In this document: positions 200 through 5,103 of the stretch, piece by piece
How positions within the stretch are numbered: the first letter of the stretch is position 1
Layout: each line of letters opens with the position of its first letter
From: Octopus sinensis
Lineage: Eukaryota
DNA: 5,103 nt
Reading direction: 5' to 3'
Assembly (NCBI RefSeq): GCF_006345805.1
Contig: NW_021830385.1
Location: 1 to 5,103, forward strand
Made by a program: the position numbers and the translations under genes
Notes under the pieces: model-generated
Databases searched by the model: none
Told to the model about the DNA's origin: nothing
What the model saw: the letters and a program-made list of their open reading frames with translations, nothing else

Positions 200-315
200 A
201 AGCATTGAACTGGCAGAATCGTTAGCGCGCCGGTGAAAGTGCTTAGCCTCATTTGGTCCATCTTTGCGTTCTGTGTTCTAATTACGCTGCGGTCGACTTT
301 GCTTTTCATCCTTTC
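200..315 (+). mobile_element. tRNA-derived SINE, family A, 3'-truncated copy
   Basis: A-box-like TGGCAGAATCGTTAG (211-225), degenerate B-box GTTCTAATT (275-283), then GGTCGACTTTGCTTTTCATCCTTTC (291-315). Positions 210-315 align without gaps to 384-489 (23 differences in 106 nt by hand count). Confidence 0.8.
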
Positions 316-375
316 ACTGACGATGAAATAACTACTGGGTTCGCTGTTGCTGACCCTGTGCCTATAGTTATCATT

Positions 376-590
376 AAAACTTGCTGACAGAATCGTTAAC
401 ACACCGGACAAAATGCTTAACATTATTTCATCCGTCTTTGCGTTCTGAGTCTTGATTCCACTGCAGTCAACTTTGCCTTTCATTCTTTCGGGGTCGATAA
501 ATAAAGCACTAGTTGAGCACCGGGGTTAACATGATTGACAAGTCCACTTCAACCAGATTTCATACCTTATACCTGTATTAGAAAGTATTA
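376..590 (+). mobile_element. tRNA-derived SINE, family A, near full-length copy
   Basis: A-box-like TGACAGAATCGTTAA (385-399), B-box-like GAGTCTTGATTCC (447-459), central GCCTTTCATTCTTTCGGGGTCGATAAATAAAGCACTAG (resembles the Meta/MESC-type SINE central domain, inferred), ending in a short TATTATT tail. Paralogous to 200-315. Confidence 0.82.
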
Positions 591-2853: not shown

Positions 2854-3004
2854 TGTTTCTTTATTAGCCACACAGGGCTGCACATAGACAGGACAAATTA
2901 CAAGGTAGAGCTTTTCTTTTGGGGGTAAAAAAAGGGGGTTTGGTTTTCGATCAAAAGGGAAAGAAAGAGGACAAAAAAAGGGGGGAATAAAATAAAAAAA
3001 AAAA
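2854..3004 (-). mobile_element. Probable 3' end of a 5'-truncated non-LTR retroelement embedded in a (GATA)n array
   Basis: The minus strand reads a T/C-rich tract, then ...CAGCCCTGTGTGGCT-AATAAA-GAAACA running directly into (TATC)n; AATAAA is at plus 2860-2865. (GATA)n resumes on the other side at 3005-3020. Confidence 0.55.
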
Positions 3005-3038
3005 AGATAGATAGATAGATGTGTGTAAAGGGTGAATA

Positions 3039-3350
3039 CCCCTTTCGGTCATCAATGACTATGGGATTACACCTAGAAAGTTACCCTCCAAGGCATAGGT
3101 CCGGGTAAAGTTGTTTATAGAAGACCAGCAGGTTGCCCACGCATACCAGCATCCCTTCTCCATTCCACCGATGTCATCCAAGGGAATGGCCAAGGCTAAT
3201 ACAGCTTGGTACCAGTGACATCGCAACCCTTTTCTACAGATGAGTGAACTGGAGTAACGTGAAATAAAGTGTCTTGCATAAGAACACAACACACACAGCC
3301 TGGTCCAGGAATCGAACTCACTACCTCTAACCACTCTAACCGCCTTCACA
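3039..3350 (-). mobile_element. tRNA-derived CORE-like SINE, family C, with a shortened tRNA head
   Basis: Minus strand: TGTGAAGGCG...AGTGGTTAG (A-box remnant), B-box GAGTTCGATTCC (plus 3308-3319), CORE-like TTGTGTTCTTATGCAAGACACTTTATTTCAC, then about 220 nt of body. The head resembles 4126-4210. Confidence 0.78.
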
Positions 3351-3366
3351 TATGTGTGCGTATGCG

Positions 3367-3465
3367 TATCTTCTTCCCTTCTTTCCTGAGCGTCCAATAA
3401 TACTTTATTTGTTCCACGTCCTCGCGTTGTTGTGTGTTTTTTTGTTTTCCTGTTTGGATTAACTT
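3367..3465. mobile_element. Interspersed repeat fragment abutting (TA)n, possibly a Penelope-like pLTR remnant
   Basis: T-rich segment ending ...GTTTGGATTAACTT at a TA tract. The family assignment is from recall only. Confidence 0.3.
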
Positions 3466-3504
<39 letters not shown>

Positions 3505-4125: not shown

Positions 4126-4210
4126 GTGTGGAAGCTCGTGGCTTAGTGGTTAGAGGTTTCCATTTCTGGAGCGACCGATGCGTTGTATCCTTGAGTAAAA
4201 TACTTCACCC
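4126..4210 (+). mobile_element. Truncated tRNA-derived CORE-like SINE head, related to family C
   Basis: Canonical A-box TGGCTTAGTGG (4139-4149), decayed B-box GGTTTCCATTTC (4155-4166), CORE-like TTGTATCCTTGAGTAAAATACTTCAC (4183-4208). Confidence 0.65.
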
Positions 4211-4624
4211 ACATCATTCTGTTTGTTCTTATTCTTGCTCATATTCTTTTTCTGCCCTTTTTAAGAAAAAGACAAACACACTGTACCTATTGTTAACTGT
4301 TTCTTATATGTATTAGCCCTCCCAATCACTTAGACCCTCTGAAGAAGCCTAGGGGCACATTCATCATCCAAACTGTATCTGCCCATCACTACAGAACACT
4401 GAAAAGTTGTAGTAGGCAAGGAGGATTTCGTTGCCCCTTGGCAGAAACGGCGGTAAGGAACTAATACCTACTGACAATCTGATCTTTTGCTCTTTTCTGT
4501 AATATTAGTACATATGTATGTATTCTTCTAATATATTCTAGTACATTAGACTAATATTGACATACTAGAATGCCTACCGGTTGGTGTATGAGGTTTTGTA
4601 TCTCCTCCATTTTCTTATTTGCCG
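4211..4624 (+). mobile_element. Probable Penelope-like element pLTR or retrozyme remnant carrying the hammerhead motif (boundaries approximate)
   Basis: The segment begins where the SINE head breaks off, contains the hammerhead motif, is T-rich and ends at (TA)n. Penelope-like elements are known to carry type I hammerheads with a minimal stem III in their pLTRs. Confidence 0.4.
4330..4464 (+). ncRNA. Type I hammerhead ribozyme-like motif with extended stem II
   Basis: Core CTGAAGA (4339-4345) and GAAA (4444-4447). Stem II GCC/GGC (4347-4349/4440-4442) plus AGGGGCA/TGCCCCT (4351-4357/4432-4438). Minimal stem III AC-GGCG-GT. Cleavage triplet GUA (4453-4455). Stem I CCT/AGG (4336-4338/4456-4458) plus TTAG/CTAA (4330-4333/4461-4464). 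Confidence 0.72.
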
Positions 4625-4643
4625 TATATATATATATATATAT
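4625..4643. repeat. (TA)9 microsatellite
   Basis: Directly visible. Confidence 0.95.
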
Positions 4644-5103
4644 CTTATTATAAAAGGCAGATTTTATCTGCCTCCCTTTGTCAGTTATAGAAATCTACAA
4701 TATAGGATTTCTTCAATTACAATTTACCTAGCATTTTTAAGAGTAGAATGCATCGAGTCATGCCAGGTCCAGTTTTTAAAATTTAAACTCCAATTAAGCA
4801 AAATTTACAGAAAACTCACATTCTGGTGTGTATGTCAAATGCTGTTCTTAATGTGGTTTACACCACACGCACACGCACACACACAGTGTGCAACGAATAA
4901 AATGAAAGTAATTCACTGTGTGTGTGTTGACAGGTAGACAATAGAATGCGATGGCGATGGCGATGTAATATTTGTTTATCTGTCTATCACCTGATAGATA
5001 CATGAGTAAAATGTATGGCAAGCTAAGAGATAAGAGTGAGTGAAAATGTTCTTGGAAGAGAGTAAATAGCGAGAGTGATTTGAGGAAGACTTTACATTAA
5101 ATA
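4643..5103 (+). mobile_element. Possible Helitron-like non-autonomous element, 5' portion, running off the window
   Basis: Begins A|TCTTATTATAAAAG, matching the Helitron 5' TC after a host A. Hairpin AGGCAGAT-TTT-ATCTGCCT (4655-4673) and several more inverted repeats follow. The 3' CTRR end is not in the window. Confidence 0.4.

Follow-up and report, generated by a model that had tools for sequence, protein, structure and literature searches.

A long stem II in minimal type I hammerhead motifs of a Penelope-like retrotransposon lineage in Octopus sinensis

Introduction

Penelope-like retrotransposons are known to carry hammerhead ribozymes of a minimal type, which cleave weakly and as dimers (PMC4209133, PMC6765202), and whose in vivo role is termed unclear in PMC8557442. 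The hammerheads of PMC4209133 share with the octopus locus described here a short stem I, a tiny palindromic stem III, predicted cleavage as dimers, and room for an extra N10 or N11; the descriptor given in that source, however, allows a stem II of 3-7 bp with a loop of 3-10 nt, at most 24 nt together, and the octopus stem II is longer. What the same source terms a larger than usual helix II measures 7-8 bp, and the "long helix II" of PMC13725137 measures 6-8 bp.

The closest described relatives are the Hydra-clade elements (Craig et al. 2021, PMC8557442), including Hydra-1_Obim, which share with the octopus elements the C-terminal GIY-YIG endonuclease, the CxCX5C linker, the RWK/DKT motifs, (TA)n targets, and, close to the 3' end, a type I hammerhead with a frequent mismatch at positions 10.1/11.1. 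The Hydra ribozymes in File S2 of that paper have 3-7 bp stems and 3-10 nt loops, whereas stem II occupies 82-107 nt in the octopus lineage. Unlike the Hydra elements described in that text, which are mostly <3 kb, the octopus unit extends over ~5.6 kb, its linker is rich in Asn, and its 3' UTR measures 2-2.7 kb. A search of the supplement of the same paper for five short motifs from the octopus families found none of them. In Naiads, the half-cores lie 35-50 nt apart, and the available text does not give their fold (PMC8557442).

Two further systems merit comparison. The Poseidon element PAc of Anolis likewise combines a hammerhead in its pseudo-LTR (pLTR) with AT-rich targets and two 3' ends per family, but it belongs to a different clade, and the available account does not mention a long stem II (PMC11167929). 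Its ribozyme needs protein and is dispensable for insertion in vitro, and RNA ends at the cut were not found in the same study (PMC11167929). Non-LTR retrozymes likewise have a type I hammerhead with ties to Penelope repeats, but they are tandem and non-coding (bioRxiv 10.64898/2026.07.22.740005), in contrast to the copy examined here, which is dispersed, truncated, and derived from a coding element. Recently active Penelope families have been reported in an octopus, with ribozymes unmentioned in the main text (PMC13282606). Here, we analyzed one entire contig of 5,103 nt (hereafter, the window) from the 2.7 Gb genome of Octopus sinensis, for which a preliminary description had proposed a hammerhead ribozyme with an unusually long stem II.

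Results

The hammerhead of the window copy

The paralogue alignment, which comprised 31 paralogues from 30 fetched loci, covered positions 4201-4627 of the window and revealed an ordinary decayed transposon fragment, aged and 5'-truncated, whose features are compiled in Table 1. The conserved core motifs were found exactly where the preliminary description had placed them, with CUGANGA, GAAA, and NUH in order and the pairing of three helices around a core open at stem I. In hammerhead numbering, the cut is predicted between 4455 and 4456. Stem I and the basal helix of stem II were confirmed, but stem III, which had also been expected to pair, reached a pairing probability of only 0.004 as a monomer and was absent from the minimum-energy fold of 4330-4464, in which stem I and the long stem II were formed. 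The possible distal pairs of stem I were retained in 25-30 of 33 rows. As a whole, the 135-mer was no more stable than its shuffles (z = -0.84), and no hammerhead was matched by Rfam in the window at E ≤ 5. The ribozyme deviates from type I in two respects, lacking the short stem II implied by an Rfam or descriptor match and the G10.1-C11.1 pair; as had been anticipated for length-limited searches, both the published descriptor (3-7 bp, 3-10 nt loop) and Rfam overlooked it.

Table 1. Positions of element and ribozyme features in the window
Feature	Position	Strand	Basis or remark
5'-truncated 3' end (pseudo-LTR region) of a Penelope-like retrotransposon, likely of the Hydra clade	4201..4624	+	paralogue alignment, copy ends
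Possible distal stem I extension	4330..4333	+	may pair with 4461-4464 across a 2x2 internal loop
Stem I 5' strand, CCT	4336..4338	+	pairs with AGG 4456-4458
Core C3-A9, CUGAAGA	4339..4345	+	sequence match
Position 10.1, A	4346	+	faces A4443; mismatch instead of the usual G-C pair
Stem II, 96 nt	4347..4442	+	basal helix 4347-4357/4432-4442 and long interrupted hairpin
Stem II, family register	4367-4370/4419-4422, 4375-4380/4411-4416, 4383-4387/4406-4410, 4392-4394/4399-4401	+	family folds
Position 11.1, A	4443	+	aligns with sister families
Core G12-A15.1, GAAA	4444..4447	+	sequence match
Stem III and loop	4447..4454	+	8-nt palindrome, perfect in the family, broken here by G4452
GUA triplet	4453..4455	+	predicted cut between 4455 and 4456
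Stem I 3' strand, AGG	4456..4458	+	pairs with 4336-4338
(TA)n run at the element 3' junction	4625..4642	.	same junction in many paralogues

The stem III palindrome was perfect in 17/31 paralogues and occurred in two alternative forms across families, but it was absent in the window copy, in which G4452 stands at a position occupied by C in 26 and by T in 5 of the 31 paralogues, and by G in none. The calculated energy of the stem III self-duplex was -6.2 kcal/mol with G4452 versus -14.1 kcal/mol with an intact palindrome. By its sequence, the C-to-G change at 4452 breaks the palindrome that dimers are predicted to need, and the ribozyme of the window copy is probably impaired; because the palindrome is lost, this copy would also make a poor construct for cleavage assays. 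Within the 135-mer, the copy deviated from the majority of the paralogues at 13 positions (9.6% divergence, against a paralogue mean of 6.5%). Decay of the old copies was nearly even, with 96% conservation in the core and 93% in the insert among the 31 paralogues; the core was intact in 20/31, and core and palindrome were both retained in just 12/31. At the stem II pair 4353/4436, the window copy carries G-C and most paralogues carry A-U, although the same G-C was found in another paralogue.

Several additional observations concern the sequence in and around this copy. In the A.A lineage, named for its residues at positions 10.1/11.1, the stem I 5' strand, together with the CUG, is able to pair with the beginning of stem II (window 4336-4354), a conformation that would be expected to switch the ribozyme off. 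Whole subfamilies (L163, L168, L174, L177, and others) display a CCGAAGA core, in which U4 is replaced by C with all else kept. Window 210-510, 1030-1390, and 3000-3500 contain abundant short dispersed repeats, with 12-93 matches among the fetched loci, which we take to be SINE-like; simple repeats of (GGT)n and (GATA)n occupy 1756-2074 and 2654-2853. The stretch 4643-4690, after the (TA)n run, also recurs, with up to 11 matches among the fetched loci, and resembles a Helitron 5' end. Immediately 5' of stem I, the stretch 4290-4333 is pyrimidine-rich and ends in TTAG, similar to an intron terminus that has been described at helix I in Penelope of Drosophila virilis (PMC4209133).

Positions 10.1 and 11.1

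The "extra A" initially described on each side of the stem II base is present, but the two residues are not insertions, as A4346 and A4443 align to positions 10.1 and 11.1 of the sister families. All 31 paralogues exhibited A.A at these positions, and across families (37 rows) the combination was G-C in 13, A-U in 5, G.U in 3, and unpaired in 16. In a 39-row tree with a midpoint root, which does not order the changes, the 14 A.A rows formed one side of a branch with 100/100 support, beside the A-U families. A mismatch at 10.1/11.1 is of a kind already known in natural ribozymes: U.U is found there in many Hydra-clade ribozymes (PMC8557442 File S2) and is reported to be the best tolerated mismatch at this site (PMC3088659), and the published descriptor permits an "extra N10" and an "extra N11" (PMC4209133).

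The long stem II as a lineage trait

Folded alone, the 96-nt stem II of the window copy reached z = -2.5, with 5 of 200 shuffles equally good, and it is approximately four times longer than published search patterns permit. The three inner helices first drawn within it (ATCC/GGAT, TGCC/GGCA, and ACTACA/TGTAGT) are indeed complementary in the window copy, but as a family feature they held less well, pairing in 75, 66, and 68% of cells among 33 relatives. A shifted register paired in 87, 87, and 80% of cells in the same number of relatives, although it was derived from folds of the same family members and the comparison thus favors it. ACTACA/TGTAGT in particular had to be abandoned as a family helix, as two of its pairs form in only 4/33 and 6/33 rows; because the changes at 4388, 4410, and 4413 are private to the window copy, this helix is private to it as well.

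Exact patterns returned 1,428, 254, and 63 genome matches in overlapping sets, the last from a pattern specific to the window's own lineage, against 0 for reversed controls. Of 61 distinct pattern-selected stem II regions, 55 folded at z ≤ -2 (40 shuffles each), and among the 61 sequences stem II spanned 82-107 nt, with an unrelated 78-nt match as the single exception. When loci were selected by the 3'-end motif alone (30 loci), the five full family ribozymes all spanned 85-100 nt, with 8-140 permitted. The sister locus L080, located through its protein and not by a ribozyme pattern, shared the core, and its 85-nt stem II, which differed in sequence, folded at z = -3.9. The long stem II was common to all sister families sampled, and the hairpin, which varies in sequence and length yet continues to close at its base, fits a folding constraint.

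Covariation was assessed in 37 rows hand-picked from the 61 pattern-selected sequences to span families. Two-sided changes between families affected the third pair of stem I (U-A in 13 rows, C-G in 11), the sixth position of stem II (A-U in 19, U-A in 16), and the interior of the palindrome (A-U in 21, G-C in 12). In total, 45 cells changed on both sides versus 24.3 after shuffling, a value reached by 0 of 500 shuffles; because the rows are related, this count reflects few events and is not a probability. For most rows, the selecting pattern prescribed both the base of stem II and its range of lengths, so that the invariant base pairs of stem II were set by the search, and kinship inflates the covariation. 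With these limits, the relatives conserved both core and pairings, as the preliminary description would have predicted. When 33 decayed A.A and A-U copies were folded jointly with RNAalifold, the hammerhead was not recovered; the structure obtained was a competing hairpin in which the core CUG is buried.

Full-text literature searches returned no report of stems this long; the variant list of Lunse et al. 2017, Repbase/Dfam, and one supplement file of PMC4209133 lie outside this comparison and may bear on novelty. What appears to be new here is the long stem II in an otherwise known minimal Penelope type I hammerhead.

The parent element and its clade

The repeat family provided at least 43 matches from the best 40 of 352 candidates scored, the full-length ones being 84-89% identical. 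Among copies, the 5' end varied, the 3' end was fixed at either of two positions and followed by (TA)n, and an inverted partial copy often stood in front, an anatomy that PMC8557442 assigns to Penelope-like elements. The second fixed 3' end lies ~200 nt beyond window 4624 in longer copies, and the window copy uses the nearer one. In the window's own lineage, the locus L056 harbors the same ribozyme ~2.7 kb downstream of an endonuclease frame, a continuity that is backed by independent loci with overlapping alignments (L057, L058, L084-L087, L089). L056 contains endonuclease and RT-thumb pieces with CxCX5C and CxxC; a whole RT frame was not found among the copies of this lineage. At L056:3484-4190, the Asn-rich linker contains the 3' end of an unrelated LINE, with a zf-RVT match below the Pfam cut-off.

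A young sister family was reached via the endonuclease frame of L056. At L080:1-6260, direct repeats at 1-658 and 5604-6260 flank a single 960-aa frame combining RT and GIY-YIG endonuclease, revealing the pseudo-LTR organization of a Penelope-like element in its entirety, with a repeat-to-repeat unit of ~5.6 kb, a linker rich in Asn, and an AT-rich 3' UTR of 2 kb. Whole 960-aa frames were present at two loci of this family (L080, copies L081-L083), and because the three other copies are 98-99% identical to L080, the family was recently active. The L080 protein contains RWR, DKT, YRDD, CxCX5C, CxxC, and CxH, in agreement with the textual definition of the Hydra clade (RWK, DKT, a CxCX5C linker, and CxxC plus CxH in the endonuclease; PMC8557442), and the supplementary alignment was compared by eye. 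Insertion into (TA)n also agrees with this clade, and the unit exceeds its <3 kb, a size that is typical and not defining. On these motifs and the by-eye alignment, the element likely belongs to the Hydra clade; an initial reading as Neptune was dropped, as the motifs fit the Hydra definition. Pfam and PDB searches with the 960-aa frame and the endonuclease fragments returned nothing significant, and the ESM Atlas provided a GIY-YIG lead on 11% of the members of one cluster. Protein relatives were unnamed in both the word-based search (1) and the HMMER search (10,663). For the young pLTR, Rfam gave no hammerhead match (E ≤ 10), and no RNA run was listed as containing it in a search of sequencing runs.

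Insertion breakpoints near the predicted cut

Breakpoints were mapped at 90 loci from the first 100 listed of 1,689 3'-motif sites, yielding 52 mappable motif-bearing arms. In 29 of them, the 5' break fell in the range -140 to +160 relative to the predicted cut. In the sister families, 9 of these 29 arms broke within -5..+15, where 2.0 would be expected (binomial probability 1e-4; scan null over any window, 0.007); this interval was set with the data already in view, and the arms of one insertion are not independent. A second arm set from the sisters placed 7/27 in the interval, which was not significant (scan null 0.11); the pooled sister arms gave 16/55, and in a set picked for resemblance to the stretch behind the cut the figure was 4/13. 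The window's own A.A lineage, sampled at 38 loci that were part of 81 sites, showed no peak (2/26 versus 2.0 expected), although by eye one further insertion, L307, likewise begins at the predicted cut, which weakens this negative. A similar peak could arise from stalling at structure or from AT-rich microhomology; in most references, however, AT content peaked at +20..+40, a region with few breaks. The pile-up of the sister families just downstream of the predicted cut is best regarded as an indirect, DNA-level hint of in vivo cleavage.

Discussion

The reading we favor, with a probability of roughly 0.7, is that the window contains a minimal type I hammerhead in an aged, truncated Penelope copy, that its long stem II is lineage-wide, and that intact elements of the lineage would likely cut dimerically. 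The core, the pairings, and the anatomy of the element all uphold the preliminary description of a minimal type I Penelope-like hammerhead with a non-canonical long stem II. In the mechanism we propose, a repeat-to-repeat transcript would carry two ribozymes that pair with each other through the palindromic strands of stem III, and intact elements would cut their RNA as dimers after the GUA/GUC triplet (N17), by analogy with other Penelope ribozymes; these cuts may be slow or protein-assisted. The upstream product would then terminate in the long hairpin, and the downstream product would start the next unit. The breakpoint pile-up in the sister families suggests that cleaved RNA may sometimes serve as the template for reverse transcription, in which case some copies would stop where the cut template ends. 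Since the genomic copies continue for 170-410 nt beyond the cut, the RNA on which most insertions begin is likely uncut or re-joined. The long hairpin may be retained because closing back on itself would assemble the core, and it may double as a putative binding site for the protein of the element.

An unlikely alternative is that the ribozyme of the A.A lineage is catalytically dead and that its core and hairpin persist by descent or for another hairpin job, such as protein loading or priming. The substitution of the most conserved stem II pair by A.A, the missing breakpoint peak in this lineage, and the competing hairpin that buries the core in RNAalifold are all compatible with a dead ribozyme, and ribozyme mutants of another Penelope element still insert in vitro (PMC11167929). 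However, several diverged A.A subfamilies all retain the core, triplet, stem I, and palindrome, and mismatches at 10.1/11.1 are displayed by published Hydra-clade ribozymes (PMC8557442), with U.U reported to be the best tolerated (PMC3088659).

It is highly unlikely that the copies constitute a non-autonomous retrozyme or SINE-like family built on the ribozyme, as the preliminary description had partly envisaged in suggesting an undescribed retroelement or retrozyme. Neither half of that suggestion survived intact, since the element is not a retrozyme and its clade, Hydra, has already been described; the novelty that endured was the long stem II. Although most copies found are non-coding, 400-700 nt in length, and retrozymes have been proposed as Penelope-repeat derivatives (bioRxiv 10.64898/2026.07.22.740005), the window lacks a head-to-tail monomer array, and the 5' ends vary continuously and run into the endonuclease frame. 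The retrozyme reading is largely refuted.

Adoption of the ribozyme by the host for a function at this locus appears hardly credible: the intact core and the G-C at a stem II pair that is A-U in most paralogues could be read as preservation, but 20 of 31 other old copies likewise retain the core, another paralogue shares the G-C, and the copy has lost its palindrome and diverged beyond the paralogue mean (9.6% versus 6.5%). A chance match of short motifs, to which the unremarkable whole-region fold (z = -0.84) and the missing Rfam match might point, is negligible and is refuted by the exact genome matches (63, 254, and 1,428), of which the reversed controls had none, with the ribozyme lying at its expected place in the terminal repeat.

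More than 11,000 exact pattern matches with a 40-100 nt stem II were counted in the genome, unseen by Rfam and the published descriptors. A second set, larger than that of the lineage described above, with ACAYRTGT as stem III and a 40-70 nt stem II, comprised 10,246 exact matches (control 3), and the same flanks with 9-39 nt spans gave 230 (control 6), which suggests that the search blind spot is general in the octopus genome. These long-stem motifs often occurred in inverted pairs, and two examples (L085:8569-8662, plus strand; L091:4562-4655, minus strand) folded no better than shuffles. Tentatively, it is possible that hammerheads with a 40-100 nt stem II are the predominant form of ribozyme in the octopus genome, that their cleavage in vivo is frequent enough to have left the breakpoint footprint in the DNA, that the hairpin is a functional module of Penelope elements, which may act in protein loading or 3'-end protection, and that hammerhead counts in animals are badly underestimated.

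In a single genome, most of the hammerhead motifs that share one type of stem III can escape a length-limited search. The octopus genome offers a young intact family together with graded older families bearing natural G-C, G.U, A-U, and A.A variants, and it makes available a DNA-level test of whether insertion breakpoints mark the cut site.
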